A stretch of DNA of 64,000 nt, taken from assembly GCA_003971905.1 (NCBI GenBank), contig RSEE01000016.1, positions 62,001 through 126,000 of the forward strand, written 5' to 3'. Below the pieces are notes generated by a model that saw nothing but the letters and a program-made list of their open reading frames with translations, was not told where the DNA came from and did not search any database. How positions within the stretch are numbered: position 1 is the stretch's first letter; the number at the start of each line of letters is the position of its first letter. Positions 1,947 through 64,000 of the stretch are shown piece by piece. A program made the position numbers and the translations under genes. Source of the stretch: Moniliella sp. 'wahieum'. Its lineage: Eukaryota.

Positions 1947-2387
1947 AGGAACTCTTCTGGTCGACCTGGCCTCAATGAAGGGAAGAGAGGACCTCTCCTC
2001 AATACTCCATTGTGCCAGTTCTTGTTGGCATGTTTATTACATATCTCCCCCCCTGGAAACTGATGCTGTATACTTCTTGAGACTCTGTCGGGACCAGACC
2101 CACATGCTCACGCACTGTCACCAGGTGTACTGGGCTCTGATTTGTTTTCGACCCGCAAATGATCCTCATCCTTTCCCCATCTCCATGTTCTGCTATACTA
2201 CAAGTAGTTCTGAGAACAAGAAGAGGCATCAAGCTTGCTACTCACATAAATCTTTAACTGCAAGTGGAGGTAGTAAGAAACCGTTCCATACCAGGGATAC
2301 CGCGGTGGGTATTCTACCCGATGTGTTGTGCAACGATAACGATCATTCGGGTTGAACACAAAGTATTTTCGCTACAGAAGCAACAGA

Positions 2388-2485
2388 GGCGAGATAGCGA
2401 AGTGGTCTAACGCGCTGTGTTAAGGCATCTTTGGATACCGTGACCGCAGTCCTCCGGGGCGTGGGTTCGAATCCCACTCTCGTCA
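2388..2485 (+). tRNA. tRNA-Leu(AAG) with 18-nt intron (2426-2443)
   Basis: Acceptor stem GGCGAGA/TCTCGTC with discriminator A. D-loop AGTGGTCTAA. Anticodon stem CTGTG/CGCAG with loop TT-AAG-G^C and intron CATCTTTGGATACCGTGA at the canonical 37/38 position. Long variable arm TCCTCCGGGGC. T-arm GTGGG-TTCGAAT-CCCAC. Confidence 0.95.
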
Positions 2486-2487
2486 AC

Positions 2488-2510
2488 TTTTAGCATTCAT
2501 TTCCTTTTTT
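2488..2510 (+). terminator. RNA polymerase III oligo-dT terminator of the tRNA gene
   Basis: TTTT immediately after the tRNA 3' end and a longer T run at about 2505-2510. Confidence 0.7.
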
Positions 2511-3206
2511 CCGAGTGCAAGGCCGGTCGAATATCACCTCGCCAGCGTATCCTTCCCTGAAGTTTTCCAGTTTCACGCACTGAGAAAGCAACTGGGCGAT
2601 ACGTGGGCAGCCAGCTCAGAAAACCTACGAGGGGAGGTAGAGCAGCACAAATCCCACTGGGTGGCGTCCTATAGCAGTCCTCAGGGCCTACTTACCAGCA
2701 AGTACCGCGCAAAAGGAGAGAAGGGATGCCATCCAAAGCTAGTAAGTAACGCAAGGAAACAAGCGGTGGCTGGGTACCAAGAAGAGGGAGGACAGCATGC
2801 AGGTAGAGAGACAGAACACGCCACTAGACAGACAGCAGGGAAGGCAACAAAGATGTTGCTTCCCCGGTACTTCTTTTGGAAGGACTTAGGTCCAAGACTT
2901 GGCACCTCAGACGACCAGGCAAATTACAAGCCGGTACCAAGCCCAAAACGAGAAGACGGCAACCACACAAGGACCAGAAGGAAAGTGAGACGTGGGAGAT
3001 TCATACAGAGAAACGCCTAGGGTGGAGAGGAGGTGCATTTTGGTGCACTTTGCTTGCGTTTTGCTCATACGGGGACAAGGGTGGACAGGTGTTAGGAGAA
3101 CGGGATTCTCTCCATGCATGGGCGAAGGAAAAAGATCACTCCTTGCCCCTGCCCGCTCGTGCAGGGCAAGGAGATGGATGATGGACCGTAAGAGCTGGAA
3201 ATACTC

Positions 3207-4525
3207 TTAGGCTTTTTGAGCCTTATTGGCCTTTTTACCCCCCACCGGCTTCACGGCAGAGGCAGGGATGGCACCCACAGGAGGCAATGATTCGCCACCC
3301 TCCTCCTTGAGCATTGAGAAGGCATTCATGCTCGAAAAACGTGATACGCCTCCATTGGCGACCGAGGGAGCCGGCTTGGTAGCTTGCTCCTTAGCCGGTT
3401 GGGTGGCGCGGGCACCACGAACGCGGACGCTTTCCCACCCCGGCTCGATGATGGCACTATGCGGAACAGGAGGCGGCGCAGTGAAAAACTCCGATGGGTG
3501 CACTTCGGCTGCTGCCGGCTTCTTACGGTTGCGCCGGCTGGGAAAGCAGCCGCCGACTCCGTTGGAGCGACAGCGGGTGTGGCCATCACAGGAGACTGTT
3601 CCTCCACCTCAGAAGAGATAGGCTCCGTCTCAACTGCAACCGCAGGGGCAACGGGAACAGCCTTGGCCTCCCATCCAGCTCCGGCGGACCAATCGCCCTC
3701 TCCAGCATGGCTGGGCCCCCAGTCAATGGGTTCCTCTTCCGGCAGGTAGCTGCCGGGGGGGCGGAGAGGTGCTTTCAACAATCACACTGACCTCACCAGC
3801 ACTCTCTGGAGCCGAAGAAAACAGGGACGGCATCAATCGAGGTGTTCGCTCCGTTGGCGCTGGCAAGCTCAGGGGTGGCAGTGGGAACGCCTTGGGTCAC
3901 GGCAGGCCGGGCGCAGCCTCCTCCGCTGCAGTAGGAGCGGAAGTATCAGCAGGAGCAGCAATGACGGCAGCGGAAGCAGCAGCCGCAGCAGCCTTTTGGG
4001 AGCGCTGCTTGCTCTTGCGCTGAGCCCGGGTCGTCTGCCATCCGTCCTGTTCGTCAATCTCGGTGTCGACCAGGGGAGTGGTCGCAGGGGCGAGGATCGG
4101 CGCGACCGGGGCAACGGACGAAGGGCCGGCAGGGGCAGGTGCAGAGGCAGAGGCCGCCTTGTTTCTTTTTGCGCTTGTTCTTCTTGGCCGACTTGGACTG
4201 GCCGGGGGCAGCGCCGGTGGAGACCGGCGTCTCGACCTCATCTGAGGCAGGGACAGGAGTCGATTCTACCGCGGAGGGGATGGGGGGGAAGGAGGAGCCG
4301 AGCGGGCAGCCCTGGCCTTAGCTGCCTGCTTCTTCTTCTTTTGCAAAACCCGGGCCGAGCCGGGAGCGGGACCGGATGCGTGGAGAGCAGGCTTTCCGCT
4401 GGGCCTGGAGCGATGCTGGGCGTAGAGGAGGGCGAGGGGGATGGCCGGGAGGAGGAGGAGGAGAGGCCAGAAGGGGCGGCGGGGGTGTGGGTGCTGTTGG
4501 CGTGCGAGCTATGGCTGGAGGACAT
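3207..4525 (-). CDS. Hypothetical low-complexity Ala/Pro/Ser/Lys-rich protein (frameshifted)
   Basis: Chain of minus-strand ORF segments (MSSSHSSHANSTHTP..., ...DEQDGWQTTRAQRKSKQRSQKAAA..., ...EPGWESVRVRG...NAFSMLKEE...KKANKAQKA*). TTTAAA TATA-like element about 90 nt upstream. No recognisable domain. Confidence 0.55.
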
Positions 4526-4758
4526 GGCGAGCGGGACGCGGGGGGCAGGAAGGGGCGCGAGTCGGGGAGGAAGAGGGAGAGAGAGCGTGATGGAGTGGGC
4601 CCGCGCGCGCTTTAAAGGCCGGCAGGGGCCTGCCCTGGCCGGCTGGGTTCCACACGATGCGTGACGCATGGGTGAGCTGCCGGCGGCCGAGGCAGCGCAG
4701 AGCGGCGTGGGCCGACCCACCGCCTGCACCACGCGGCGGCTGCGCAACCCTGCGGGTT

Positions 4759-5104
4759 GCATCATGCATGCATCATGCATCATGCCTCGTCTGTCCAGCG
4801 GCCACCGCCTGCGTCTTCCACGTCGCCCCGCCGCCTCCAGGAACCAGCGCGGGCAGCCCGGCCGGCCAGGCACGGCGCCAGTCGCCGCAAACACTGTTTT
4901 TTTGCTACATTGCAAATCCATCCCGAGATTAGATCCGCGCATGCTCAGATCGATCGGCCATCATGCATCATGTATCATGCATCATCGACCACGCTCCCAC
5001 CATTCGCTTCTCCGTCGGGGTTATTGCTGGGCCTTGGATCCATACACATGTCCCTCCCACCAACAAACAGGCAGGCACTATCATATCTCACTAGTCACTA
5101 GTCA
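4759..5104. repeat. 7-bp TCA+palindromic-core arrays (cores TGCA, TCGA, CTAG)
   Basis: 4768-4785 (ATGCATC)2ATGC; 4961-4988 TCA-TGCA-TCA-TGTA-TCA-TGCA-TCA-TCGA; 5081-5104 TCA-TATC-TCA-CTAG-TCA-CTAG-TCA. Confidence 0.85.
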
Positions 5105-5175
5105 CTCCTTCCCCAGCCATCTCGTCTCTAGTCACTTTGTCATAGCCACCCAGCCACCCACAATGCTCTGCGCTC

Positions 5176-6350
5176 TCAGGCCGTCGCCTTGGTCAGCCTC
5201 TCCACCTGCTCCAGCACTGCCCGCTTCGACGTCCCCCCCACCACGTCGCGGCGCTCGACCGACGTGTCAAACGACCACACGTCCATCACGTCCGCCGTGA
5301 ACAGCGGCGACAGCGTCTGCAGGTCCTCCAGCGTCAAGTCGGTCAGCTGCACCCCCCGCTCCTCGGACATGCGCACCGCCTCGCCCGAGATGTGGTGCGT
5401 TTGGCGGAATGGGACACCCTTGCGCACCAGGTACTCAGCCAGGTCGGTCGCCAGCATGTCGGGCGTCAGCGCCGCACGCATCTTCTTGGGGAAGATGGTG
5501 AGCGTCGATACCACACCTGTTGCAATCTTGAGCGAGTTGGACACGGTGCTGACCGCATCAAACAGCGGCTCCTTGTCTTCTTGCAGATCCTTGTTGTACG
5601 TAGATGGAATGCCCTTGAGGGTCATCAGGAACCCACTCATCTGCCCAAACACACGGCCGCTCTTGCCACGCAGCAGCTCAAGCGAGTCCGGGTTCTTCTT
5701 TTGCGGCATGATGGACGACCCCGTGCTTCATGCGAGATAGGTTAGTCCTTGGCCTAGCAGAGACAATCGTATATGGAGACAGAGGGGGTTAAACGTACGA
5801 GTAAGCATCGCTCAACTGGATAAAGCCAAACTCGGCACTTGAATAGATGATCAGGTCCTCAGCCATCTTAGACATGTGGATCATCGTAAGGGAAGCCCAC
5901 ATGAGGAACTCGGCAACAAAGTCGCGATCCGAAACCGAGTGCATCGAGTTAGTGCCAACAGTTTCGAACCCAAGCTCCTTGGCCAAAAAGTTGCGATCCA
6001 GCTTGGAAAAGGGGTTGCCAGCAAGAGGACCCGAACCCAGGGGAAGGACCGAAATGCGCGGAATCAGGTCGCGGAGACGGTGGTAGTCATTCGCAAAGTA
6101 GGTGGCATGCGAGAGCAAGAGGTGAGACCAACGAATAGGTTGGGCACGCTGCAAGTGGGTGTAGCCCGGCATGAGCGCATCCACTTCGCTTGCCGCACGC
6201 TTCAGCATCACATCCAAAAGCCCCTTGAGCGATGAAGTGATGTCTCCAATCGTGTCGAGCAACCAAAGGCGCATGTCGGTTGCCACTTGGTCATTGCGGC
6301 TTCGGCCCGTGTGTAGCTTGCCAGCCACAGGACCAATCAACTCCTTGAGC

Positions 6351-6382
<32 letters not shown>

Positions 6383-6640
6383 GTCCGGAGCCGGCTTGAA
6401 GGTGCCCTTCTCCCACTCCTCTCCTACCTTTGAAAGTCCATCGACAATTTGCTCCGCCTCGCTCTGGGTTAGGACACCAGCGCCAACAAGCGCCTTGGCA
6501 TAGGCCTTCGAGCCACGGATGTCTTGCGACCACATGCGCTGGTCATACGAGAGCGACTGGTTGTACTCGTGCATCAGCGGATCGGTGCGGCCAGTGAAGC
6601 GGCCACCCCAAAGCTTCTGCTTGGTGAATTCCTCGGTCAT
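5176..6640 (-). CDS. ARG4: Argininosuccinate lyase
   Basis: [51 protein letters not shown] and the fumarase-family signature [14 protein letters not shown], reconstituted across intron 5726-5798 (GTACGT...CTAAC...AG). Also [13 protein letters not shown] and [13 protein letters not shown]. Confidence 0.98.
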
Positions 6641-7349
6641 GTTTGAAAGGGCTGCGGACGGGTGGGAGAAGTAGAGAGGTGGCGGTGGGGATGGACGGTG
6701 GGGATGGTAGGAAGTCAAAGGAAAGAAGAAAAAATACGCTGGCCTTGTCGGACTATGTAGGAAAAGCGGCCGATGACTGGATGACAGTGGCTGTCCGTCG
6801 AGCGCGTCCAGCGCCCAGCGCAGCGGACTTGATTGCGGCGGATGAACCCAACAGCGCTCTCGTGCCCACCGCCTTTTTTTTCTCCGTTCGAAGATCGGCA
6901 TTCTTGCGAGGCGGCGGGCACGGACAGTCCGGAAAGTTTCATAATTTCTAGTTTCTGCTTATCGATTATCGATTCGATGATCGCGGCTGCCCCACTGGAG
7001 CAATCAATATCAAGGCGGGAGTTGGTGTGACGTGGGCGTGATGACTTGCCTAGGCTGGTGCCATGGCTCAGGGGCCCTAGGCTCGTTCATACCATAGCTC
7101 GGTGCGCGCCCCCCTTTCCTGCCCTGCTCCTTCTCTGCCGTTGGTGTTCTGCCTCTCACCACCGCTCCGCTCTTCGCTTCACTCATAACCTTGCTCCCGC
7201 TCTCCTGTGACCGATTGTCTGGCCACATCTCCTGTAGACTGCTCGTCGGAAAGTGCCCTGTTCCTCGACACAACAGAGTTACATCAATATCCTAAGCCCC
7301 CTGAGGACAGGGCGGATGATGGACAGCATGGATGCGGTATATATATAGA

Positions 7350-10004
7350 CTACAACGTGGGCGCAATGACCCCGAACACATCCATCGAAGGGCCTGTGTG
7401 GACTTCCTTCTTGGAGCGGCGCTTTTCTTGACGATCAGCTGCGCTCATCCTCTCGTGGCGCTTCTTGAGTCGCTGCGAAACGTCCTTGGCATACTTCTTG
7501 GCTGGCCCATTGGTGAAGCGAGTGATCATGTGCATCGCATCGCCACGGGTGATTTGGTCAAGGCCCAAGTCGTGATAGCTCTCGGGGGTCAGGCCGAGCC
7601 GCTTGGTAATGAATTTGGCCTGGCCGTCGGTCATGGGACTGGAACGCCAGGGCGCATCGCGCAACATCATCCTGCGGGAAACCCCTCCATGAGCCGAAGC
7701 AAAGGTGTCGCATGCCCGAATCGCCGCCTCCAACTCGTAATGCGCCACAATGCGCGTTGGCCTTGCATGGCGCGTCCTTTGGCCAGGCACCGTGACTTGG
7801 CGAATAAACGTACCCAGCCAAGCTAAAAATAATCGGCATGGTCAGTAAAATCCAAAAGATCAATTGGACGTACCAGGTGGACGGTCAATTTTGGACATAT
7901 GTCGACTACCCGATCTCCCGTTTTGCTTCTCCTCCCCTTCCTCTTCATTCTCGACCTCTTCCTCGCCCAATTCATCGGGAATAGCGTCTGCACTTGCCTC
8001 CAACCGAATCCGTCCAACAGAAGGGAGGTTGAGAACGTATGTGTCGTTGCCACAATCGGTCCAAGCAAGTCGCGAGGCGCGTAATATGGGGCTGTGGTGC
8101 TCTTCTTTCAAATCAATCGCTTCCTGCAGCGATGCGACCGAATCATAGTCAGTCATCGTCATCTTCTTGGGCACTTCAACGACAAAATCGGGCTGCTCAG
8201 GTTCCACCGTCTCAGATGAAGAAAGCGCAGGCAATGCTTCCTCTTTGCGTTGTCTCTGGGCATCCCTGCGTGCCATCAGCTCTTCCAAACTGGCTTGATC
8301 CATCTCATCTTCTGGATTCAGACCGAAAAGTGTCGGAGCACATACCGCCCCTCTGGCCCCCTCAGCGGCTGAAACGTAGTCCAGCACCAAACAATCCACC
8401 TTCCCCGTTTCCGGCGACTGGCGCGTGCCGCGTCCAATCATTTGTTGGTACCGTCCTTGACTGCGGGTGGGACGCGCAATCAACACACAATCAACGGGTG
8501 GAATGTCCGTTCCCTCGGTAAACACACCACAATTGACTAAAACAGGGAACTCGCCCGCACGAAAGCGCTGTAAGAAATCGGCCCTTTCTGCCGACCGGGT
8601 CATGCCATCCACGCCAAACGCAGGGACGCCAGCCTGACGAAAAGTCCACCACGCGAGCGACATGAGAACGGGTGGCACAAAAGACCAGCGTGCTCCTGCG
8701 GCGGTAGCGTCCACTTGTGTCTCCCTCCACCCGCTCAGGTAAGTTCCAACACCGATAAAGCCAAGTCTTGACCAGAAGTTTATTGAGCTCAAAGCTGTTG
8801 AGTACTTGGTCCATACTGTTCATGGTAAAGTCGCCCTGACCGTCCTGGGTATCAGGTCGATTGGCCTTGGAGATACGCAAAGCACTGAGGTTGAGGTGCC
8901 CCCGAATCATAGTGAAACGTAAAGGTGCAAGGTGCCCCAAGCTCATCAAGTCGATCATGCCGTTGTGGTATACAATTTTTTCAAACACCAACCCCAATGC
9001 CAGGCCATCGCTTCGAGTCAAAGTGGCGGAAAACCCAATGAGGGGGGTATTGTACTCCACACGAGGCAGGGGGGTATTGTACCCCTCACGAGGCATGGGG
9101 GTGCGGATGGACGTGGCTGTGTCGCCCGTCTGGTTGCGGTTCCGCAACGCAGGGTGAAAGTACTCAAGGACATGCATCCATGTCTCGGCGCAGGCATGAT
9201 GGGCTTCATCGATCACTACCGCCTTGAAACCAGCAGGGTCAAACTTGCTCAGTCGAGCCCCTTCCCTGGCTGCCAGGGTGGCGACAGTGGCGACCGTCAC
9301 ATCAGCCATGCCTGTAGACTCATTCCTTCCTTGCTCCACCTCCACCGTAAGGTCCGGATGGGATCGCGATACGGACATGGCGGTCTGTTTGGCAATTTCA
9401 ACCGAAGGAACGAGAATCATGACTTGCCCTCCCCTCAGGTATTCCCGCCCAGTCCAGGTGGTATCATCATTGTTGGTACGGGAGGGGATCTGTTTTAGCA
9501 GAGTCGAACTGGAGTCGGCAGTCAGCACCATGGTTCCAACATAAACGGAATTGCGTACAAAATGACCGTCTTTCCACTTCCAGTGGGAGCGCTGACAGCT
9601 ATCCTGGTCAATCCATCCGCCAAGGCACCGACACAGGCATCGATGCACTCCGATTGGTACAGGCGCAGCTCAACGAGCGAGGGAGGAGCCTGCTGCAGGG
9701 AAGAGGCAATATGTTCTTGAGCATTGTCTGACCGTTGTTTTTCTGACAGCCCCAGCGGTTGCCGGGCTTTGCGTGGCCGACCCCTCTTTTTAGGAGACGT
9801 CTCAGGCACCAGTTGATCCTCTGAGGGCTCCAATGGAAGCTGGACTTTGCGTGGCCGACCTCTCTTCTTGGGAGACATCTCAGGCACAGAGACAGTAGCT
9901 GTGCTCAACATACGTCGGGGAAGCAGCTCTGACTGCGATATCCATGTCTGACGAAAGAATTGAGGGGATGCGAAGACGCGATATGCTCCGCGGAGCCAAG
10001 CCAT
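7350..10004 (-). CDS. IRC3: IRC3-like mitochondrial SF2 (DExH) DNA helicase/translocase
   Basis: Arg-rich presequence-like N-terminus. Q-motif LRLYQSEC, Walker A APTGSGKT, DEAH, FSAT, LVFC, LVNCGVFTEGTDIP.VDCVLIARPTRS, QMIGRGTR and the Irc3-type C-terminal ..DAPWR..PMTDGQ.. segment. Introns 9509-9558 and 7823-7873; frameshift near 8640. Confidence 0.85.
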
Positions 10005-14633: not shown

Positions 14634-16058
14634 TCAATCCCAAGGAGAAGGTGTGCTCAGGTTTGTGCTCGCTTCCGTATCGGACGGCGTCTCAGGAGAG
14701 AGAACTGAACGATCCTCTTCTTCGTCTTCAAATGCTAACGAGCTGGTAGAGGAGCACGGGGACGGTGGCGTGGGACGTCGAGTACAGGAGCCATGCAGTA
14801 TCGGAACCGTCGTAGTAGATACCGTCATGGTCGAATCCACCTTTTCTTTCTCCTGGGGGGCGGGTGTAGTGGGATTCGCTTCAACCGGAGGAAGTGGGGT
14901 GCAGGGGTGGGGAGAAGGGTTCTTAGCAGAATCCTCCCGCACCACCGTCGTTTGTTGGGACGGTGAGGCGTCATCAGCTACCGTCGACCTATCACTCATA
15001 CTTGTGATGGACACGAAGGAAGAACGTGGAGAGAGGTTGCCATCGCTCTCCTGTTTCCGTGAAAATTGGGGGGCAATGGGAATGGGGTTGTCAGACCCAA
15101 AAGCGCTGGGCGCGGCGACGGTGGGTGGGGCAGCAAACAGGGATGACTCTGGGCAAATGGGGAAGTGAGTCGGACCACTGCTGGTAGGATACGGACCGAT
15201 TCCACCCTCTTTCCTCATCACAGACACCTCTTCCTCATCGGTGGAGCTTACGCTGAACCGAGATCGTGTGGCATGATCCGATGGGGATGAAAGCGGATCG
15301 GCGCGGCGGTGTGGAGAAGCCTGCACGGTTGCATCCTCCCCACCCGTTGAATCTTCCCCTAGGGCATGGGCAAAGGCAAAGTGCTTGGCTTTAGCCGCCT
15401 GATCGACCTCAGAACCTTGAGAGGAGAGGGAAGAAGGAGGATCGGGATGTGAAGGATTTGACGGGCAGGGACAGTCGATGCTTCCGCTCCGAGGGAGGGG
15501 GTATTGATGGAATAGGCGCGTTGGTACTCAGCCAGCTGTTGTTGCAGTTGGCAGACATAGTCTGTACCCGAATAGGCATCGGTTAGCATAGATCGAAGAG
15601 AGAGAGAGGAGAAAACGACAGAGAGAACGCACCGTATGTGTGGGAGATGATGCAGAGTTTTTCGAGCCATATCGCTCTCGATGCGACTCGTCATTTCGGC
15701 CATGGCCACTCGCCGAGCTGATCGCTGTCCTCCGCGTTGTTGTGGCAGAGGCAGAGGCGGAGGCAGAGGCGGGTTGGGCTTGGGCGCGGGCGCGACGTTG
15801 GGCAGTGCGACGACGGGAAGGAGGAAGGGGTTTGGCCCGGAGCACATCGAGCGCCTCGGCATAGCAGGCTGGCACGAGGGTCTGGAGGGGGTGAGACGCT
15901 CGTTGATCTTTTCGCGGCGGCGGCGCTCGATGAGCGAGTGGTCCGTCTTGCGCTTCAGCACGCGGGACTTGCGCGGCGGCGGGGGGGCGGACGGGGGCGC
16001 GTGGGCATGGGTGGAGGGGCGTGGCGGGGGTGGGTGGTGCCGGGGGGCGGTGGGGCAT
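14634..16058 (-). CDS. bHLH transcription factor
   Basis: Basic region/helix 1 RKTDHSLIERRRREKINERL..LQTLVPAC. Helix 2 ..KLCIISHT^DYVCQLQQQL across intron 15562-15632. Long Ser/Pro-rich C-terminus. Frameshifts present and start uncertain. Confidence 0.85.
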
Positions 16059-20234: not shown

Positions 20235-21908
20235 TCAGAGCCGTTTCAACGGACTCTTACCACCATCCAAAAACCGCTCCATGTTCCATGGCCCCGACAC
20301 GCGCGCTAACGTGTGTGACCGGGACGTGGAACCAGGTTCGATGACGTAGGGAAGGCCCGCTACTTGGTTCCACCACGGTTCGGCTTGCGTCGAACCCGAG
20401 ACAGAGAAGAACGAATCGTGATGCAGCGGCGAGGGGGGGAAAGGAGTATCCGAGGGGATGAGGGTACGCTCTTTGGCAAGTTGGGAGAAGAGGAACATGG
20501 TATGTCGTGCCGCCGACTCGAGCAAAGGCTGGCTCGCATGGCCTGTGCGCAGGAGAATCGCCGCGTTCACCTGCTCGGCGAGAGCAATGCGCCGACGATG
20601 GTCAAGGTACCTGTGAGCCGGGCTGTTCTTCGGGTCAGGGTAGGCCAGGAGCACCGAGACATTCTCAATCTCGCGAAGGTAGCTAGCCTTGGCTTTGACG
20701 TCGTCCAGGCGCTGACAGGATGCATGAACGTTCTGGATATAGCGCAGCGCATCATGAATCGCATTGTTCCGTGCCCGCGCTGCTGCTGCCTCGGGCCCAG
20801 ACAGATTGTGACTTGGCCCGCGGAGCCGGCGGCGACATGGCCACTCGGTGTCAGACTCAATGCGCTCTCGCTGCTTGCCACACTCGAGGGGGCCGGTGAG
20901 GTAGCTCGGCTGCCCGTTCGAGATCCCGATGAACGTAAGCCGAGGAAAGCGGATGGGAATGGTGCAGAGCCGATGGAGACAAGGTGCTAGTCGGGTCAAG
21001 CGGACTGGTTGACCCATTCCCCGCGCCGTTCCCAGCTGCGTTGTTGGCACTAGCACCTGCCGGGGCGGGGTTGGGCTGAAGGCTGCTCGCGCGGCGGATC
21101 GTCTCGATAAACTGCTGAATGTGAAGGTTAAGCTCAATATGGGCTGGATCAAGGCTGGTGGGGTACGAAGGTAGGGCAGGCTGCCCAGACTTGGCCTTGG
21201 CCGACGGTTCTGCGGTCGGTAGGGTGCTTCGATCGTCCGGAGCGCCGTCCTTGTTGAGGCTGCTGATGAGAACGCCAGGAAAGAAGGAATTGATGCTCTC
21301 CATGGCAGCCTGGATATTGCCTTGGTGGATAAAGTCTTTGATTTCTGTGAGACGGGAGACGGGAAACGGCGACAGATAAGGCTGGTCAGTGGCGGGGCGG
21401 GGCCGAGGCGGGGAAGGGAGGACTCACGTCGCCTGTACAGCAAGGCTGTCATCCCTCAGGGGTCAGGTCGGTGCCCTGCACGGCAGCTGTGGTAGCGTCA
21501 ATCTTGGCCTGCAACGCGGGGTCGGGACAGGCGGCTGACGTGGTATCGGGGGCGGCGTGGGACGTGGCCAGCGGGTGGCGTGGACGGTCGGACGTGGCGG
21601 CGGCGGGACGAGACCGCTTGGCGGGAGATGTGGCTCGGCCGAGATGGCGGAGGCGTCCTGGTGCACGCCGGCGCGAGCGAATGCAACGGCGGTGTCAGCA
21701 TAGGACTGGTGCACAAGATAGTCCATCACGAGGCGGCGCAGCGCAGTGGGGCTCAGCACAGCATCGGGCGTGGTGGAGGCGGGGACGGGGGCGGGGGCAG
21801 AGGCAGAGGCAGAGGCAGCAGCAGAGGCAGAGGCAGAGGCAGAGGCCGGGAGCGTGGTGGGGGCGCGTACGTGCGTGCGGACGACAAGGGGGGTGCTCGG
21901 GAGCTCAT
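20235..21908 (-). CDS. LisH-CTLH-CRA domain protein (GID8/Twa1-like, GID/CTLH E3 ligase complex)
   Basis: LisH LRRLVMDYLVHQSYADTAVAF. CTLH EIKDFIHQGNIQAAMESINSFFPGVL...ELNLHIQQFIETIR. CRA LLAYPDPKNSP..YLDHRRRIALAEQVNAAIL. Intron 21345-21427. Confidence 0.85.
21797..21846. repeat. (GCAGAG)n hexanucleotide microsatellite encoding poly(Ala-Ser)
   Basis: gcagaggcagaggcagaggcagcagcagaggcagaggcagaggcagaggc inside the GID8-like CDS. A shorter run of the same unit lies in the bHLH gene at about 15744-15770. Confidence 0.9.
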
Positions 21909-39257: not shown

Positions 39258-40640
39258 ATGAGTACGATCGATGAGTATTGGATGATCAATTAGAGTGGTG
39301 CGGGGGATCGATAATCGATGAGCGCTTTTTAGCCATCTTTGGACAACTGCTGCTGTGCCCCGCTCCTGTTTGAAAGTTTGACCTGGTCTGTGCGCATAAG
39401 CGGGTGTCTGTACTGCGTGGAGTGCTGCCCGCTTGTTTCGATCCGATCAATCAACATCAATCGTCTCGAAATTGAAACCATTGAACATGAAACTTTTGAC
39501 TGCCTTGCTCTACAAATGACACGAATCCAAAGAAAATGATTGATGCTGCAATGGCATGCACGTGCCCTATGGACTTCCCACAGCAGCGGAGCTAGGCGCT
39601 AGCGACATGTGCTAAGTACGAAGTACTCACTTTACGTACTCGTGCACTTCTCGCCTCTAGCTTGTTTCAAGCTTCAAGCTTCACGTTCTGCAAGCCTCAA
39701 TGAGGCCTCAGGTCAACGGTCACCGGTCAGGCCCTGAGGCTCAGGCCTGAGGCTCAGGGCTTTACATTCACATGGATCCTGAGCTTAAGCCTCAAGCGCT
39801 TCTCAACCCTGTGATGCATGTGAGGCCGAACGAATTAGAAGAGCAGGATATTGGAAACTGCTGCGCCATGTGGTTGGGGAGGCACACATAGTAGGTGGCA
39901 TACATAGGGACCGCAGGTCAACGAGGTCCTCACTATGTATTGGCGCGTACATCAGGGACTATTCTTTGATGTTGATAGCATGCACTGATTAACTGATTGT
40001 GCTCTTGGAGAGGCGGACGGACAATGGATGATGTCGCGGATGCATAGGTGAGAGCAATGATTAATGATCGATGACTTGATGACCCCATTTATTGAATCTC
40101 AGATCGATTCAGATCACGGTTTGGGCACTTGGGCACTGGGGCGTTTGAGTGGCGTTTGACGCGTAACGTGCGACACTTTGGAAGCTTGAGAGCTCGAAAC
40201 AGGGCGGTTGAGGCCTCCAGCGCGCGGAAGATTGGGTGGGGCAGCACTGCTGCACAACGCCCTGACGTGTGACAGGCATCAGCAACCTGCACCGACCCGC
40301 CCAATTCGGTGCTGATCATGCCCCTGACGTAAATAGACACTGGCGCCGTGCGCTCCCGAGTGGGGTGCACTGGCCACCAAGACAGCCCTGGCAGCTGGAG
40401 GAACGTACGAGCTGGGGGCGCCGCAGCGCAGCTTGGAGCTCGGAATTCAAGTCTGAGAGATCTGAGATCCTGAGATATGAGAACTGAGATATACTGCGGG
40501 CTGAAGCGCCGAAGCGCTGAGCGGCCGAGCGCCGAAAAAAAAAGCTGAGCTTCTGAAGCTTCAATTGAACGTCGGGACGCGTGATAATCACACGAGGCTT
40601 GAGCTTTAGCGCTTGCGCTTCGCTTAGCGCTGGGCCTGCT
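39258..40640. repeat. Cluster of 7-bp palindromic-core arrays in a long divergent intergenic region
   Basis: 39307-39326 ATCGAT-A-ATCGAT-G-AGCGCT; 39667-39683 TCA-AGCT-TCA-AGCT-TCA; 39713-39757 TCA-ACGG-TCA-CCGG-TCA-GGCC..TCA-GGCC-TGA; 40058-40074 TGA-TTAA-TGA-TCGA-TGA; 40455-40490 GATC/GATA cores; 40554-40563 TGAAGCTTCA. Confidence 0.85.
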
Positions 40641-55119: not shown

Positions 55120-57995
55120 ATGCATCCGTCCGGCATGTTTGATGCCCAACAGCGGAGTAAGGACCTGGCCTCGCCAATCCCCGTCAGCATCGCCTCCTGG
55201 CCCTCCGCCACCGGCTCGCCACAAATCCACGTACTATCCAGCGACGAAGAGTCCGCCGCGGAGGATGGTCCCGATTCCTATGATTCTGATGGCAGCGGTA
55301 ACCGCAGTGGCTGTGCCGCCAGTCCCAACGCCTGCAGCCCCGTTCGTCCCGTGTCCTCCTTTCTTCAGGAGTACCCCAAGACTCTTTGGTTGCCAGCAAC
55401 AGCATGGCCCCACAATCAGCGAAGCTGATATGACACGTGCCAGTCTTCGGCCTGTTCTCCCGGGAGTCAGCCAGGAGCCTGTTCCCCACATCCAGCTCGA
55501 GGCATCCGAGGCCTTTCCTATCCCCGTTCGTCGTCACCTTCCTCGGAAAGTTCGGACGTTTTGGACATGAACACAAGCTTAGTGAACATATTGATGAGGT
55601 GCAACCAGAGGAGGTCGAATTTCGAGTAAACTGCAACTGGAACGGGGATGCCTATGATCGTCATTCTTCCGAAGAATCCTCCCATCAACCGGGGGTAGTG
55701 GGAGACACATGTTTGCTGCACGATACGCCCTCGTCGGAATTGCCCGAAGAACGCCCCGTGCCAGTTAGATCTCAATCACCCGTCCCAGTTTTACATGCAG
55801 AAGACGAGATGGACAAGACGCTCTTATCCGATGCATGAAACTTACTTTAATAGAGGTGCAACGATTCCAGACCGTGGCCCTGCCCACAACGACCGCACCT
55901 ATTATCCCGCTCTCGATGTGTTCGGTGAGGGCGACCGCATTGACGATACGACTAAATACGAATTGGAGCAGCTCGGACCCGTGTCTGATGAAGAATTGGC
56001 ACACGATGTATCGTCCCCTTTGCCCGAACTGTCGGGCGAATCGGCGACACAGTCCAAACGAGTCGGAGGGGGATGACGAGTTGGTTGATGAAGACAGTCC
56101 GCACCCAGAGTCAACTATGTCCCCAACCCGGTTGAAAACACTCTCCAGACCTCCCCCAATCTTTTAGATTTGTGGAACACTAAGCTTCAAGCCCCCTTTG
56201 AAGCCCCTTCCCTGCTTCCAAAGGGTGCAGCCGAGGCCACGAGCGCTGCATCTGGGGTCGTGTCCGCTGCAGGTGAGACTTTGGGGTCAAACTGCAAATC
56301 TCAGTCCCATGCAACTGTCCTTTCGGGGACAAAGGGCACGGTGGATGGCATGGATACCAGGGTGGAAGAGACAAACAAGTCTTGTCTGGTACTTTGCTTC
56401 CGTGATGGTGGTCTTAGCCTTTTGCGCGAGGACGATTCGACCATTGAGCCCGCGTTGGCCGCAACTCTTGCGGCACCTGAGATGACATTGAGCTGGCCGG
56501 GCCCCCTGTGGGATAAAGGAACGCAATTGCCTCCGCCCTCGCGTTGTATCAAGAAGGACCCGGACGGTGACGGATGGATGGAAGAGATGCGGTTTCCCCC
56601 CCCCGAATCGCTACCATCACTGCTAGTGAAGTTGCAACGCCCTTGGCCCAAATTATCCTCGGCCGCAACAGAATCGAGGTTCAAGTCGCAATCATGGCGC
56701 GTTGGAAGGGTGTGCTTGAAGACTCTCCGGAAGTTCTTCCATCTTCAGTCGTGTGGCAGCCGGACACCTTTGGCGAAAAAAAGTGGGAGCCTGGGCAGCC
56801 CATGATGGATAACACACTCCATGCATGGCGGATGTTGGCGCTGTACAACTTCAATGGCTCTTCGACTGCAACAAATCGAGGGTAGTGTCAGGCCAACACG
56901 TGCGCTTGGACGTGACACCAGCGGCGGTGAAGGCAACCGACCTAGGTTCAACTCATGGGACACACCTCGTCCATGGATACGATAGTACGACGCTCAATCC
57001 CAAGGATTCATCGGACTGGGAAACGATAAAGTCGGCGCGGATCGTGCTCGGACGCCATCGCAAGTCGCGTGAGGCGGAAACAGTACACCGCCGGGTGGAA
57101 GCTTCTGTATGTCTCCTCTTGGTCATTGAGTATGGCATATTGACTTGCTCTCCCACTATCATTTTTTATCACAGATTACATTTGATATGGAACCCGCTAA
57201 GGTGTTGCTCAATCTGCCCGCGAGCGGAAGTAGCATTGCCAATACAAATGTCCGTCCGCACTTGCCCGACCGTCGTCGACGGATGCTTTGGCGTGACTGG
57301 GGCCGATCACGGCCGACGACTGCAGGTACTGGACGGTCCGTATGGGGCCGGGTGCCGCCTCCGCCGTTGTCCAACCGGGTGCACATTGCTCAACCTACGG
57401 CTTCTAGGCCCCTTAGTTTTCAGCACTCGCCGCTGCGACCCTCAGTGTGGATGCCGTCCCGTGACGATAAGCGCATGAACCAGCGGCAAAGGATTCTGCC
57501 GCTCATTACACGCCGCGACGATTCCGTGGCGAATATCATGGACCAGCAAACGGCCAACGCTGCGTCACCCATTCCAGGCCCAGCGCATTTGGATGAGATC
57601 AACTGTCTCTCACCTGATGAGGAGCTCCCGCCGATCGACCCTTCATCTGAACGGGAAACCACGGTCCAGATTGCACCGCCCGAGGAACCTGTTGAAGAAG
57701 CACCTGTGCCGGATGAGCAAGAGAATTTCTCTTTCGATCATCCTGAACAGCATGTGGACCAAGAGGCGGATGTGACACTTGTTGCTATTTCTACATCGCC
57801 GATGGCTAAAGAGGCTGGACCAAGCCTGAAGCGCAAGCGGGCATCCGAGCCTGAAGACATACAAGACCAGCAGCAGCAGCGCCGCCTACAAAGCGCGTGA
57901 TGCGGGAACGCGTACGCGACTTGTTGTTGGGCGGAATAGTGGGTGCTGTCGCCACTTTCACTTCGCTTGCAGCTTTGGGAGCTAGCTTGGAGTAA
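55120..57995 (+). CDS. FHA-domain protein with C-terminal tail-anchor TM segment
   Basis: FHA elements IILGR ... RVVSGQHVRL ... ATDLGSTHGTHL ... IVLGR. Intron 57107-57174. Acidic disordered regions. C-terminal DLLLGGIVGAVATFTSLAALGASLE* (TAA 57993-57995). Confidence 0.65.
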
Positions 57996-58603
57996 ATTGC
58001 CCAACTAGACTGCCTTACCTGGATTCATGTTCATACGTGTTTTGCGTTTTGATACTTTTGGTACTTCTATACTACCTCTCGCTTCGACTTCTCGCCCATC
58101 TAACTACTTTTTCATGCCTCTTCTCCCTTCTTCCCTTTACCGGTTCTCATTTCTCTCTCCCCCTCCCTGCTCTACCCCTGCGCATCAGATTAGCTACTGT
58201 TGATTTTCCTATGATCTCTCGCCGCCATATATTGCCGCCAAGGGTCAAGTTGAAGTACCCCTCCTCTGCAAGAAGACGAAAAGGGGAGAGCGGTTGTTGG
58301 CCCGGAAATGTATGATTTTGACTTCCTCTAAACATCATGCTGCTTTCAATCGGCATATAATAGTGGAAACGAATGTACCCTCTATAAAAGTTCAGGTGGC
58401 AGGACGTTCGTGAAGTTAAAGTCACTTGCAATGTGCTGAAAAAGTCTGTGAGTCTCTCACCACTGTTTTCATAACGAGGTTCAAGCATCCACGACCGTAG
58501 ATCGTTGCTTGCTTCTTCGGTTGGTGTGATCTCCTGTGCTAGCTTTCCGGCCCCTCTAACATGGAACGGTTGCCGCTACGCGCCACGGGCTACGGAAGCC
58601 CTT

Positions 58604-58800
58604 AAAGCTTGATGCTTGAGGCAAGCCCCCCGAGGTCTGAGGCTCAGGCCTGAAGAACGCGTAGCGCGTAGCGCTTCCTTGCTCTACCGCGCGCATGCGC
58701 ATTCGTATATTCTCACTGCGTACGCGTGAACGCGTGAACGCGCTCTCAGATGTCAGATGTCAGATCTGATCGATGATCGATGATCTTAGATCTCACGTGC
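58604..58800. repeat. 7-bp palindromic-core array cluster
   Basis: 58746-58783 TCA-GATG-TCA-GATG-TCA-GATC-TGA-TCGA-TGA-TCGA-TGA; AAGCTTGATGCTTGA; TCAGGCCTGA; (ACGCGTGA)2ACGCG. Confidence 0.85.
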
Positions 58801-59288
58801 TCAGGCGTCCCAGCCATGCGGTGCGAGAGGGCCAGCATCATGTATCACTAGAAGACCACCGGGCCTACGGCCCGGTCAGCTGGGGCTTCGCCCCAGCTTG
58901 GTGTGCTTGGTGTCCCAGCCTTAAGCTCTGTCAATGGAATGCACACAACAAGAAGGGAGATGCATCATCTTTTAGTTCCATACGCGAGGGTCCATCAAAA
59001 AGTGTGCAACCCTACTGCTCCCCGACCTGCCATGACGGGGGGGGCTGCGCCAACTATCGGGCATATGACAGAGTCGCGTCGACGCGTCCCTCTCCACCCA
59101 CTTAAAATGCCCCCTACCCGTACTCACCGCCAGTGCCCCCATTGCGGCACCAACGACTACACTGGCACACGGTGCCCCTTCAATCCACTCCCACGTTTGT
59201 GCCCCCACGGCCGTCGACCTGGCTACAAGGCTGCCGCGGAGCGGTGGAGCAAGGAGGAGATGTGGAAAGCAATTGGGGTCTTTGCGAC

Positions 59289-59428
59289 AAAAATAAGGTG
59301 GGGGAAGGACAAGAAGAGGGGGGGGAGGACAAGAATAGGGGGGGGAGGACAAGAAGAGGGGGGGGAGGACAAGAAGAGGGGGGGGAGGACAAGAAGAGGG
59401 GGGGGGGACAAGAAGAAGGGGGGACAAA
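59289..59428 (+). repeat. Purine-rich minisatellite of about 20 bp, AAGAAGAGGGGGGGGAGGAC, about 6 copies
   Basis: Units start at 59311, 59331, 59351, 59371 and 59391, with degenerate flanking copies; each carries a G8-G10 run. Confidence 0.95.
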
Positions 59429-60489
59429 GGGGATTGGTGGAAGGATGGAGTAAGGATGATCGATGGTCCAGAGGTGGCGGGCTCGATCCATGTAACGTGA
59501 ATTACGACGACCCTGTCGCAGGCGGGCCCTGCCAGGGGGCTCACTCAGGTTGGTGGGGTACAGTCCCTTACGTGAAAGACGGCTCACGGTAGTTTCGAGC
59601 TTGGGCTATCCGAGCGAGGAGGAGAAGCCTTTGGGCGTGAAGCCGAGGCGGCTGCACGCGTGGCAAAAGGCTGCGTATACGCCGGCTGGAGGGTAGTAAC
59701 GTGTCTGAAGCCTCCGGGGCTGAGAGACGGGTAGATGCAGTGGAGCGGACAGACACTGCCAGGGCTGAGAGGCATGATGGCAGTGGTTGTCAAAGGAACC
59801 CACGCGACATGTTGTGGTATGGAGAACCGACGCGGCTGATGGACGGCTCGCGCGACTGGGCAGATGGAAAGCTGGAGGACGAGGTTGGATGATGAAGATG
59901 ATGCAGCTAAGTGGAGACGAGAGGTTGCCTGTATTACTGAATCAATTGGCTGGAAACGTTCAGGAGTTGGACAGGAAAGGCGGGAAGGGACGAGAACGGA
60001 AGGTGGGAAAGGATCCCCACCAATCGAGGATGCTGACTGTTGGTTGGCCCCTTTTGGTAACCCCTTCTGTCTAAGCCCCGCACTGGGATAGATGTTGACA
60101 GAGCGAAGCAGACGAAGCTGCTACAGAGTGCGACTTGGGAGCATTCGCGATCCTATGGATGAGCTGCAAAGCAGCCTTCAGACAGGCGTGAAGGCAAAGG
60201 GGTGACCACAAGTCTACAAGCATCTGAAGGAAAGAAGGCAGGAGAGAGAGAAGGGAGATGGAGCGAGCAGGGCGTGCGCGGCCTGCGAGCGGAACTCTTT
60301 CGACCGGCTAAGCGAGAGCGTCACCGATTCACTGAGGGGTGCAGGGGAGGCCTAGCACTACCACCCCAATAGAAGCAAGCGGAGGCTGCGAAGGGGCTAA
60401 GAATATCATCCGATAGCACTTCCTCGTGTGACATGGCGCGTCAGCACTCAGCGCGGCCGTCGTTTACCTCCTGGTACATATTCATACCT

Positions 60490-61010
60490 CTCAGAGATCG
60501 CATCAATCTCAGATCTCGAAGGTTCAGTGCTTTGAGTACCAAACGTACCAACGCCGAGTATAGTACTGAGTTGCTCAGGACGGAGTTATACTGAGTCTTC
60601 TCACATCTGAGAACTACTCTCAGTGTACAGAGTACTGTGAGTACTGAGAGTACTGGATTCTGGCACTGCATCCCGCCGGGAAGCAATGATGGGATATGGC
60701 CACAGCGTTCGATATTCGTATCCTCTTTCAATATTCCATGTCAAGTCTTCAAAACAGCTTCACATCCTTGAAACCCTTCATATGCTCTCAAGTTCAGCCT
60801 GGCCAATTCCAGGTATAGCGCTGATCGATGATCGATAGTCGAGAGTATCGATCGATTATCAAAAGCGAGATCCAAATTCCAATGAAGGAACGCTACCAGC
60901 GTGAGTTTAAATGACCGCAAAACGTTTTAAGCTGTTACATGTTACGTGTTTTATATTGTCCAACGTCCAATCCCCTGTAACTAGGTTGCTAGTTACTAGT
61001 TACTTAGTTT
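60490..61010. repeat. Palindromic-core arrays (GTAC, TCGA, CATG, CTAG cores)
   Basis: AGTACTGTGAGTACTGAGAGTACTGG at about 60631-60656; TGA-TCGA-TGA-TCGA-TAG-TCGA at about 60822-60842; TTA-CATG-TTA-CGTG at about 60935; TTG-CTAG-TTA-CTAG-TTA at about 60986. Confidence 0.75.
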
Positions 61011-61867
61011 ATACGTATAGGCCGCGAGTTGCTCATTGTGTATGTGCCCCCCTTCCCCCCCACCATGGGGAGTCTACTCTGCGATATATCGATTATCGCA
61101 CTCACTGATCCGGAGGACGGGATTCAATTTATCAATGCGGCACCCGCACCCACACACTTAAGAGTGCCCTCTTTGTGTTTTCGACGTCCACGATGCATGA
61201 GGCGGCGAGTGAGTATGCAAGAGTGTCTGTGAGCATGTGTATGGTGTACGAGAAGGGCCTGGGAGTTTGGACGTTTGCCGATGCTCGCATGTTGCCCCTC
61301 CCGCCTGGGTATGCTCGCTCTACGTCTCTCTGCAATGCATATATGGTTCCCGCTTATCGAGTTAATGATCATCCTCTTGAAACGCCGAGCTTCAGCAGCC
61401 TGATGCTTTTTGATGGGGCAATGCACGATACCTGTCTAACCTCTCCATGAGCCATGAGCGTATGAGCTCCATAGCTTGCTGAGGGAGGAGAATGGAGGAT
61501 GTGTGTGACGCCTAGTGGTGCAGCTGGCCCAAGTCCGGAACCTTCTGGTTCGTTCCGTGTAATATCCAGGAAAGTATTCTCTAGCCTCCGTAGCTCATGT
61601 GCAATGCAATACACTACCAACTGCCTGCTCTCTGGTCTGTAACAATGTGGTTCTGAGGAGAGGTACGGGAGCTTTAAGAAGGGTAGGGCCTTATACAGCC
61701 GAGGGAACCGCGGAGCAGAGGGAGCATCCCAGCGGATAAGAGGGGTGATGCCTATCACACGCAGGAGAGGGCGTGATTGGGGCATTGCCCAACATATGGC
61801 TTTTCATTTTGCATTCTCGCTGTTTCCTTCCGACAGAGGATCCAATGGAGCAGAACCTGCCTGTGCT

Positions 61868-62965
61868 ACGCGTTAAGCCATAACGCGTAACGTTTAATGT
61901 CAACATGTAACAGACATCCGGTGATCGGATCCGCTTTCCCTAGTAACTAGTAACTAATAACAGGTGACCGGTGACTGGTGACGCGGTGACGCTTGAAGCT
62001 TGAAGCTTGATGCATGATGCATGATGCAGACGCGGGACTAGTGACCAGTGAGTGACTTGCGATGTGTGGCCCCACGTGGTCGGGACCGCGGGACCGGCGA
62101 TAAATTCACGATTTGATGGACGAGAATCTGAGGCGCTGAGGCTGCTGGGCAAGGCCAACCCTTCATGGCGTGGGGCCAGACATTTGATTGGTCCGAATTG
62201 TGGTCCGGACATTTGAGATGTTGTGGCTTGACGTAGTGGGCCAGAGTGAACCAGGTGAGGGCGTTGCGGAGTTTGCCTCCTCTGGCAAGTACCAAGTTAG
62301 CGGGTAGCATCAATGTTAAAGAGCGTTGGCCCAGTGCGCTACCGATGTTTGGCGCCTATGTATGGGCCAGAGCCCCCACCGGTGATGCGTGCGAGCTCTG
62401 TCTGTCATCGGTGTCACCGTGTCACCAGGCACCGGTCACCTGTCACCAAGTACACAGACCGGAGACAGCGCCCAGAACATTGATCATCGACCAAACCACG
62501 TGGTACAATATAACCCAAAGTAACCGGTGACTACTGAGTACTGAGTACTGATTAAATTACTGATTAATGATTAAGTCGATTAAGCTTAAGCTTTAAGGAT
62601 TAACGATTCGTGACGCGTGACCCATGTTTCGGGACAAGCAGGGTGCGTCAGGCGTCACTCGTCACGCATGTATGGTCTCAGATGTGGTTCACCCGGTGAG
62701 CGCTCAGTGAGCTCAGCGCTCAGCCGGAAACGGTTACATGCAAGTCATGCACTGCTGCAGATGCATCATGCATCACCTGCATCAACATCATACGCTCCAT
62801 GCATTCTCCACACCATACCCATACATCACATGCATCACACATCAGCCACCCCAACCTATCTGACCGCAACGCTGGTCCCCATCGCCACGGATGGAGCTGA
62901 GGAAGGGAGCAGATGGTAGGGCCAGCCATCAGGCCTGAGTCAGGCCTCAGGCCCAGGCCTCAGGA
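61868..62965. repeat. Largest cluster of 7-bp TGA/TAA/TCA+palindromic-core arrays
   Basis: About 16 near-contiguous heptamers at 61940-62051; further arrays at 62405-62448, 62521-62620, 62697-62724, 62759-62790 and 62929-62964. Confidence 0.9.
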
Positions 62966-63125
62966 GTGCCGCGGCTGAGCCCCTCATCGCTTCTGTGGGC
63001 AACTCGAAGCGATCGATGGGCATGGTTGTCTGGTTATTATAACCCGGCCATTCTGCTTCCAGCAGCGTTCGCGCCCAACTTTGGCCCTTCACCATCTTTG
63101 CCCCTTCTGTCAGCTGCGGCCAGCA

Positions 63126-64000
63126 TGCAAGCCCAGGCCTACCCGGCGCCCTGCGCGCCGCGCAAACTTCCGCTCCCCAGCGACAGCGATCCAAGCGGCC
63201 CTCCTACTCCCTCCGACCACACCACGCCCTTCTACCTGCAGCGCAAGCCCCTCGTCCAGTCCAGCGATGCCCAGCCCTGGTCGCGTTCTTATGCCCCAGA
63301 CGCTATTGCGTTTCGCGGAAAGAGCCCTGACGAGCAGCAAATTGAACACCTGCGCACTATGCTCGCCCACATTGCTCCTGACGGTACGTGTCCCTATGAC
63401 CCTTACCCGGTCACGCCTTTACAAAATTCTGACAACGTCCGCTTTCTGCCCATAGGCCACCAAGCGACGTCATACAATTATTACCAAACGACCCCACGGA
63501 CATAACCGTGCCGGGTACGAACGCCGCGAGTGGAAGTTAGCCAGCCGCAACGCGTCTACGCCCTCGGTCGAGGCGTGCAACGCTGATGTCGAGGTGATCG
63601 AGACACTAGACGAGGGGTGGCGGGCAAACCTCTGGTGCAGACTCCCATCAGCTCGTCCATCATGGCGACGGAAGCGATGCCAAAGTTGTTTCCAACCTTT
63701 CTGCCGTCGACGTACAGTTCCTCGTGTCCAACCAAGAGCCCATCCCGCCCTCGTCGGAGGAGTTACGTGACCGGATTGTTAAGCAGCATCGGTTCCTCAG
63801 TCAGCGCATCGAGCCTGGTGCCAAGCCACGCAAGCGCACGAGAACCCACCTGCCGTTGACAAAGCCATCCGGGCTCGATTCAAACCTATTGGCCCGAAGA
63901 GGAGCAAGCCCGCCTCGCTGCCCTCCAGGTGCAAGTCGACAGCGTGATGGAGCAGAGCGTTGTGCGTGGCGTCGTTGTCCTCGAGAAGAGAGGCTTTGTG
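63126..64000 (+). CDS. Hypothetical protein, 5' part (runs off the window)
   Basis: MQAQAYPAPCAPRKLPLPSDSDP... ORF; probable intron 63384-63456 (GTACGT...CTGAC...TAG); coding-like continuation with frameshifts. No recognisable domain. Confidence 0.45.

Follow-up and report, generated by a model that had tools for sequence, protein, structure and literature searches.

The stretch of DNA analysed here, which we call the window, comprises 64,000 nucleotides of contig RSEE01000016.1 from Moniliella sp. 'wahieum' (assembly GCA_003971905.1, positions 62,001 to 126,000 of the forward strand), and near its right end, at 61940-62051, it carries an array of 16 short tandem units whose core changes along the array. 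No other local cluster of its class, 7-bp repeats centred on T-S-A (TGA or TCA), is as large as this array. The window belongs to the nuclear DNA of an Ustilaginomycotina-like fungus. The long exon at 5789-6958 on the minus strand encodes argininosuccinate lyase (ARG4), with Tilletiaria anomala (81%) and Violaceomyces and Malassezia (74-77%) as the best named relatives, and other open reading frames (ORFs) of the window carry the eukaryotic domains CTLH, Dopey, GH20, Myb, Brix, RRM and HisG. The otherwise compact gene array is interrupted by two gene-poor stretches of about 4.5-5 kb each, at about 36.6-41.1 kb and 57.9-63.0 kb, in which neither a Pfam domain nor a coding signal was found. The repeat arrays are concentrated in these two stretches.

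Each unit of the array at 61940-62051 consists of a 4-nt core followed by a TAA or TGA spacer. The initial annotation had written the array out unit by unit, and its string, once the hyphens are removed, is 112 nt long and identical to 61940-62051. We also confirmed its count of five distinct palindromic cores (CTAG, CCGG, AGCT, TGCA and CGCG), which together occupy 10 of the 16 units, and of only two 1-nt phase slips (CGCGG and TGCA-GA). Tandem Repeats Finder divides the array into four adjoining period-7 rows (61940-61961, 61963-61990, 61987-62010 and 62008-62028), so that between 61940 and 62028 it has the head-to-tail unit of 1-9 bp that defines a microsatellite. Units 8-13 turned out to be two separate blocks with about three copies each. 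The array, its parts and its inverted partners are as follows.

61940-62051, plus strand: the array of 16 units, each a 4-nt core and a TAA/TGA spacer, interrupted by two 1-nt phase slips; located by exact string match and Tandem Repeats Finder rows
61940-61961, plus strand: block 1, (CTAGTAA) x2.4 followed by CTAATAA, with a W-type (TAA) centre; exact run at 61940-61956; right arm of a 20-nt, 90% inverted repeat
61960-61990, plus strand: block 2, units 4-7, with cores CAGG, CCGG, CTGG and CGCGG, each followed by TGA; forms the left arm of an inverted repeat of 31 nt and 94%
61991-62010, plus strand: block 3, (GCTTGAA) x2.9, unit ctTGAag, equal to AAGCTT plus G; exact run
62008-62028, plus strand: block 4, (TGATGCA) x3.0, unit caTGAtg, equal to ATGCAT plus G; exact run
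62029-62051, plus strand: degenerate tail, read as GA-CGCG-GGA-CTAG-TGA-CCAG-TGA
61873-61897, plus strand: upstream in-phase TAA chain, TAA-CGCG-TAA-CGTT-TAA
60985-61004, minus strand: (ACTAGTT)n with a TTA centre, the inverted counterpart of block 1, 937 nt upstream of it (20 nt, 90%)
62413-62443, minus strand: right arm of the 31-nt, 94% inverted repeat, (GTCACCN)n, TCA-centred on the plus strand, within the Tandem Repeats Finder row 62413-62447

The initial annotation missed that the unit type of this array recurs throughout the non-coding DNA of the window, and that the constant part is the T-S-A centre, which makes each 7-mer an odd palindrome. The same unit can equally be written as a 4-nt palindrome with a TGA/TCA spacer or as an A-NNNN-T hexamer palindrome with one additional base. 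When compared with 30 order-3 Markov simulations, the window contains an 8-fold excess of exact period-7 tandem repeats with at least two copies (32 against 4.07 simulated), and 19 of the 32 have an odd-palindromic unit, that is, an arm, one base and the reverse-complement arm, where 3.6 would be expected. The centres of these 19 symmetric arrays are TCA in eight, TGA in seven, TTA in two, TAA in one and CTG in one, giving a T-N-A centre in 18 of the 19. Symmetric units show no such excess at period 4 (20 of 263, 29.9 expected), period 5 (26 of 90, 25.4 expected), period 6 (2 of 57, 2.8 expected) or period 8 (0 of 9). Two symmetric period-9 units are present, CGTCACGCG with a TCA centre and GGCGCCGAC with a GAC centre, and the unit of the single period-11 array, TGCATCATGCA, is TCA-centred. 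The exact symmetric blocks contain only 2.0-3.0 copies.

Centre and core are also coupled. Ten-mers composed of TNA, a 4-nt palindrome and TNA occur 57 times with 13 different cores, against 8.07 expected and a maximum of 15 in 30 simulations. At a distance of 7, the identical 4-nt palindrome is found again 72 times, against 18.3, other distances showing no comparable excess, and the spacer is T-S-A in 18 of these 72 recurrences even though TCA and TGA together make up 2.7% of trinucleotides. A 4-nt palindrome followed by TSA and the same palindrome is found 18 times where 0.35 would be expected, whereas the corresponding arrangement with a non-palindromic direct 4-mer is found 7 times against 6.2. 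Direct TSA...TSA pairs number 33 and inverted TCA...TGA pairs 9. The orientation switches from TCA to TGA at perfect 10-nt palindromes, TCAGATCTGA among them, and mosaics akin to the array, with TCA-to-TGA flips, are found at 58722-58800, 62521-62620 and 39666-39760. A rough coding-like mask takes up 40% of the window, and all 19 symmetric arrays and 56 of the 57 ten-mers fall outside it.

Palindromes in general are not enriched in the non-coding-like DNA (613 hexamer palindromes against 614 expected), and we rejected a general palindrome enrichment. The excess is confined to A..T hexamer palindromes (195 against 103), the other classes showing no enrichment, and ATGCAT, ACGCGT, AAGCTT and ATCGAT are among the most over-represented hexamers in the window. 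A TSA-triloop hairpin was rejected as the basic unit because non-palindromic stem-4 hairpins with a TSA loop are not in excess (7 against 6.5 expected). Odd palindromes with a TSA centre show a mild excess as single copies (151 against 113.5). The open-access literature that we searched gave no account of palindromic heptamer arrays with a TGA/TCA centre in fungi.

The other members of the class that we located in the window are listed below.

62521-62620, plus strand: neighbouring mosaic with CCGG, CTAC, GTAC x2, TTAA, AGCT and CGCG cores and TGA/TAA/TTA spacers
62689-62960, minus strand: TCA-oriented arrays gcTCAgc x2, caTCAtg x2.1 and ccTCAgg x2
58722-58800, plus strand: members 3 kb upstream, (ACGCGTGA) x2.6, (TCAGATG) x2.9, the 10-nt palindrome TCAGATCTGA and (TGATCGA) x2.7
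60822-60836, plus strand: (TGATCGA) x2.1
4758-5106, minus strand: members 70-420 nt past the stop codon of ARG4 (gene assigned by Pfam), caTCAtg arrays, the 11-nt unit TGCATCATGCA and agTCAct x2.7
39666-39760, no strand assigned: members in the second gene-poor stretch, ctTCAag x2.6, then alternating TCAGGCC/TGAGGC units with a strong hairpin

Array and flank recur together as short direct duplicates 1.4-2 kb apart, one of 16 nt at 100% (58766-58781 and 60821-60836) and one of 19 nt at 89% (59455-59473 and 60827-60845); these could be further templated patches or chance matches. The gene-poor stretch that holds the array also contains a G-rich 20-bp tandem repeat (GGGGGGAGGACAAGAAGAGG; 6.2 copies, 95% matches, 59300-59423) and, at 60615-60652, a 38-nt imperfect palindrome (79%) with zero spacer that contains TGAGTACTGA. 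A centromere-like GC trough at 57-64 kb was considered and rejected, as no sharp trough is present. Repeat-induced point mutation (RIP) is indicated by TpA/ApT above about 0.89 and (CpA+TpG)/(ApC+GpT) below about 1.03. In 1-kb windows across 36-42 kb and 56-64 kb, we obtained 0.41-0.84 and 1.10-1.83, respectively, and rejected RIP as well. An orientation rule, with TGA on the sense strand of the upstream gene, met counter-examples and was abandoned; the gene models used for it are rough. Elsewhere in the window, a 27-bp unit x2.3 (91%, 9041-9102) and a 43-nt direct repeat (91%, copies 36 nt apart, 9767-9887) lie in or near a minus-strand helicase-like gene and may be intronic, and the hexamer GGCAGA forms short arrays at three sites (4128-4154, 15744-15770 and 21796-21846). 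Metagenome contigs scanned with the ARG4 exon gave 80 loci, the best with 57% amino-acid identity, and among them no close relative or usable orthologue.

Could the array be the product of ordinary slippage? We simulated a neutral model with unit duplication, deletion and point mutation starting from a palindromic founder, and kept the runs that ended with 9-12 distinct cores in 16 units. At least five distinct palindromic cores appeared in 0 to 1 of the 663-3953 kept runs per setting (at most 3e-4), and 10 or more palindromic units arose in no more than 0.05% (5e-4) of the kept runs. The initial annotation had argued that plain slippage is insufficient and had named such simulations as its refuter; they reproduce neither the palindrome fraction nor the palindrome diversity, and its argument therefore stands. 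Since the neutral models fail to give five palindromic cores, something favours symmetry. To this extent its suggestion of selection for self-complementarity or of quasi-palindrome correction by template switching is upheld, although one sequence does not separate selection from mechanism.

Neighbouring units are related by descent, because adjacent cores in the arrays of the window are more alike than shuffled ones: among 32 pairs, seven have Hamming distance 0 and ten have distance 1, against 1.3 and 1.8 after shuffling. The variant base has no clear hotspot within the core (6, 6, 3 and 4 at positions c1, c2, c3 and c4). The initial annotation had also proposed that one palindrome passes to another by paired changes. 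In the array, all six successive steps between distinct palindromes are single complementary-pair changes, a count made post hoc with a chance of 0.4^6 = 0.004, whereas the 20 palindrome steps outside the array divide into 12 single-pair and 8 double-pair changes at a chance rate of 0.4, which is only a weak trend.

Self-BLAST of the window yielded seven non-tandem self-matches in 64 kb, among them the 31-nt inverted pair at 61960-61990 and 62413-62443, whose arms are 423 nt apart (E = 8.6e-6). The variable seventh bases run in matching order along both arms, and units 4-7 were thus copied as one block. The 20-nt inverted pair shares the rare W-type centre between its arms, TAA in units 1-3 and TTA at 60985-61004. 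These observations contradict the reading of the array as an ordered record in which units were added one after another. Small blocks of 2-3 copies make up a mosaic that shows no polarity signal, and units 4-7 exist as an inverted block 423 nt away with their variant order kept. The 112-nt 'walk' is, in other words, several blocks abutting in 7-nt phase and not a chronological record. The one-mismatch intermediates that had been noticed between palindromes do exist, but both arms of the 31-nt repeat retain CAGG and CTGG, so these cores are not short-lived.

The initial annotation had envisaged hairpin or cruciform extrusion, yet the hairpin potential of the array is not above that of dinucleotide shuffles when folded as single-stranded DNA (z = -1.45 on the plus strand and -1.14 on the minus strand). 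Three other arrays were folded, of which two are likewise not above shuffles (z = -0.61 and -0.34) and the third, 39655-39765, is (z = -4.73). Within this third region, a 30-nt near-perfect palindrome at 39731-39760 is made of the alternating TCAGGCC/TGAGGC units. No Rfam match was obtained at E up to 0.1 in 57500-63500, and the tRNA search returned 0 tRNAs. With no Rfam match and a fold not beyond shuffles, the array does not have the features of a structured RNA family.

We tentatively favour, with a probability of roughly 0.45, the explanation that the arrays arise from slippage and short-range template switching on near-self-complementary units and are a mutational by-product, not a working element. 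This explanation starts from what was observed, namely the unit rule, the strong excess, the restriction to non-coding DNA, the descent between neighbours, the failure of the neutral model and the inverted patches; slippage, template switching and absence of function are the parts that we infer. Replication slippage or a small local duplication would first yield 2-3 copies of a T-S-A-centred unit. As each unit is nearly its own reverse complement, the nascent strand could then anneal again with a shift of one unit, or else to the opposite strand. Short-range template switching at this point might introduce paired complementary changes in the core, converting one palindrome to another, and might also flip the TGA orientation to TCA and seed reverse-complement patches a few hundred bases away. 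Error-prone synthesis at the structure-prone repeats would finally limit the block length and diversify the blocks. Template switching is plausible here because reverse-complement patches of the array lie nearby: a copy that could have served as the template, as at template-switch sites, is found over 31 nt at 423 nt and over 20 nt at 937 nt. According to PMC8794818, template switching generates reverse-complement repeats and multibase compensatory changes, and PMC13100816 reports that in yeast promoters it homogenises and expands inverted repeats. Short tandem repeat (STR) length has been described as balanced between slippage on one side and, on the other, the point mutations that arise where synthesis at DNA structures is error-prone (PMC7441554), and the short blocks observed here fit this balance.

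Several observations weigh against slippage with template switching. The T-S-A centre rule is not predicted by either process, and single-copy odd-palindromic 7-mers with other centres are as common (GSC 184, CWG 177, CSG 171) and almost never duplicated. A copying model restricted to palindromes gave five distinct palindromes in just 0.1-0.4% of runs (seven settings). Neighbouring units differ by 7 transitions and 19 transversions, a spectrum that does not resemble that of ordinary point mutation. The retention of the half-step cores CAGG and CTGG in both 31-nt arms speaks against efficient correction. The array folds no better than shuffles, so at its own level there is no evident sign of a process driven by structure. 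All statistics, moreover, are drawn from one 64-kb sequence.

The alternative that survives best is prompted by the centre rule. A base-reading protein leaves the arbitrary complementary arms unexplained, and pure base pairing leaves the centre rule unexplained; because of this conflict, a sequence-directed process stays live. In its broad form, an undescribed mutational process in this fungal lineage would duplicate T-S-A-centred self-complementary 7-bp (rarely 9- or 11-bp) segments and keep their symmetry while diversifying them, which we regard as possible but doubtful. Its concrete version, which we consider unlikely, holds that a lineage-specific enzyme or repair pathway acts at symmetric T-S-A-centred sites and leaves the arrays as scars, one unit per event. 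The enzyme might be a dimeric nuclease, transposase or recombinase whose two cuts are offset by 7 (sometimes 9 or 11) bp; alternatively, a 7-nt flap or loop might escape removal as a mini-hairpin with a 2-bp stem and a 3-nt loop. The strictness of the centre in the symmetric period-7 arrays (T-N-A in 18 of 19) argues for such a process, as does the limitation of duplication to symmetric units with a T-S-A centre. A TCA centre is found in symmetric units of period 7, 9 and 11, flanked there by arms of 2, 3 and 4 nt, although at period 9 only one of the two has it, and the mild single-copy enrichment (151 against 113.5) points the same way. Blocks of 2-3 copies also fit discrete events better than runaway slippage. 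On the other hand, a base-reading protein would hardly leave free choice among complementary arms, seen in 13 different 4-nt palindromic cores, and the 2-bp stem of the mini-hairpin is thermodynamically marginal. We know of no special stability of T-S-A triloops. Pfam gave no match to a transposase or a transposon-type nuclease in the 143 ORF translations, and no insert bounded by terminal inverted repeats (TIRs) and flanked by 7-bp or 3-bp duplications of this kind was found in the window.

The inverted pairs could also suggest a transposon origin, in which the arrays would be terminal or subterminal repeats of elements resembling foldback transposons or MITEs (miniature inverted-repeat transposable elements), for example 61960-62443, or else excision footprints. 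In the footprint version, a 3-bp TNA target duplication and two bases from each inverted end would have accumulated at reused sites. Two inverted pairs with one arm in the array bracket segments of 977 bp and 484 bp, as TIRs would, a TNA, 4-nt palindrome and TNA in succession might resemble a 3-bp target duplication with symmetric end remnants, and the arrays cluster in the two gene-poor stretches. Nevertheless, we find a transposon origin distinctly unlikely. The flanks of both inverted pairs differ and contain no target-site duplication, the 422-bp interior of 61960-62443 has no second copy in the 64-kb window, and beyond the inverted pair there are no dispersed repeats in the window. No transposase domain was found by Pfam in the 143 ORF translations (16 + 112 + 15), and TIR elements bounded by 7-bp symmetric or TNA duplications number 0 in the window. 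Footprints would require at least 13 element families with different end dinucleotides; constant end-derived bases and donor elements, by which excision footprints are recognised, were not found, as there are 13 cores and no transposase domain. Direct pairs outnumber inverted ones 33 to 9, the opposite of what hairpin-opening (P-nucleotide) scars would leave.

A functional cis-element is a still weaker candidate. The arrays would then be clusters of sites for a dimeric protein, terminator- or insulator-like DNA or RNA, or stops in three frames, with their symmetry under selection. Palindromy is retained through the core changes, the arrays are intergenic and stand beside gene ends, as in the ARG4 example at 70-420 nt past the stop with TGA on the sense strand, and the relative at 39655-39765 folds far above shuffles; a TGA every 7 nt, as the proposal has it, gives stops in all three frames. 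Against this, 13 different cores are not the site of one protein, and the orientation to genes is inconsistent, with a TCA-type array at 50855 downstream of a plus-strand gene and mixed orientations within 39.3-40.8 kb. The array itself is neither unusually structured nor matched by Rfam in the region searched. An ordinary compound microsatellite, grown from one founder heptamer by neutral slippage and point mutation with incidental palindromes, would account for the tandem period-7 arrangement and for neighbouring units one base apart, but it is very improbable given the simulated frequencies of at most 3e-4 and 5e-4 and a window-wide TSA-palindrome coupling (18 against 0.35) that cannot be incidental.

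If the unit rule holds genome-wide, it provides a countable signature, a T-S-A odd-palindromic 7-mer in 2-3 copies whose cores change in complementary pairs, which ordinary slippage leaves unexplained. It would offer a natural system for the origin and diversification of short self-complementary repeats in a eukaryote, make paired 'compensatory' change without RNA-level selection directly testable, and flag a possible lineage-specific DNA-processing activity. If a sequence-directed process were at work, the non-coding genome would be seeded with 'mirror heptamer' arrays, which would naturally report on a specific activity, be it a nuclease, flap processing or template switching. For practical work on these fungi, the arrays will probably act as hypervariable markers and put alignment and assembly at risk. 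If they proved to be conserved, they would instead represent a new kind of intergenic cis-element.

Several known systems resemble the class in part. The ends of Drosophila FB foldback elements and of MITEs are built of short tandem repeats. Like these elements, the array has inverted short-repeat arrays that bracket a few hundred bases (61960-61990 and 62413-62443); unlike them, it lacks a target duplication, a second copy in 64 kb and a transposase, and most of the arrays have no inverted partner. Ogata and Miura reportedly observed 'hairpin-elongation' in vitro, in which a polymerase extends palindromic tandem repeats into long arrays. There, too, self-complementary short units are those multiplied, whereas the arrays described here lie in a chromosome, contain 2-3 copies and follow a rule tied to the centre. 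Compound or variant-interspersed heptanucleotide STRs share with the class non-coding head-to-tail units, neighbours one base apart and variant blocks that abut in phase, but here the units are self-complementary around T-S-A, the blocks have 2-3 copies, and neutral slippage and mutation are insufficient. Quasi-palindrome correction and template-switch mutations, as described in PMC8794818 and PMC13100816, resemble the class in their symmetry-keeping paired changes and in reverse-complement patches within about 1 kb. Known template-switch cases involve inverted repeats that have a loop, or arms of several bases or more, in contrast to the loop-less tandem core of 4-6 nt with a fixed 3-nt centre found here. 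The class belongs with compound microsatellites and template-switch-prone quasi-palindromes, as a variant form of them.

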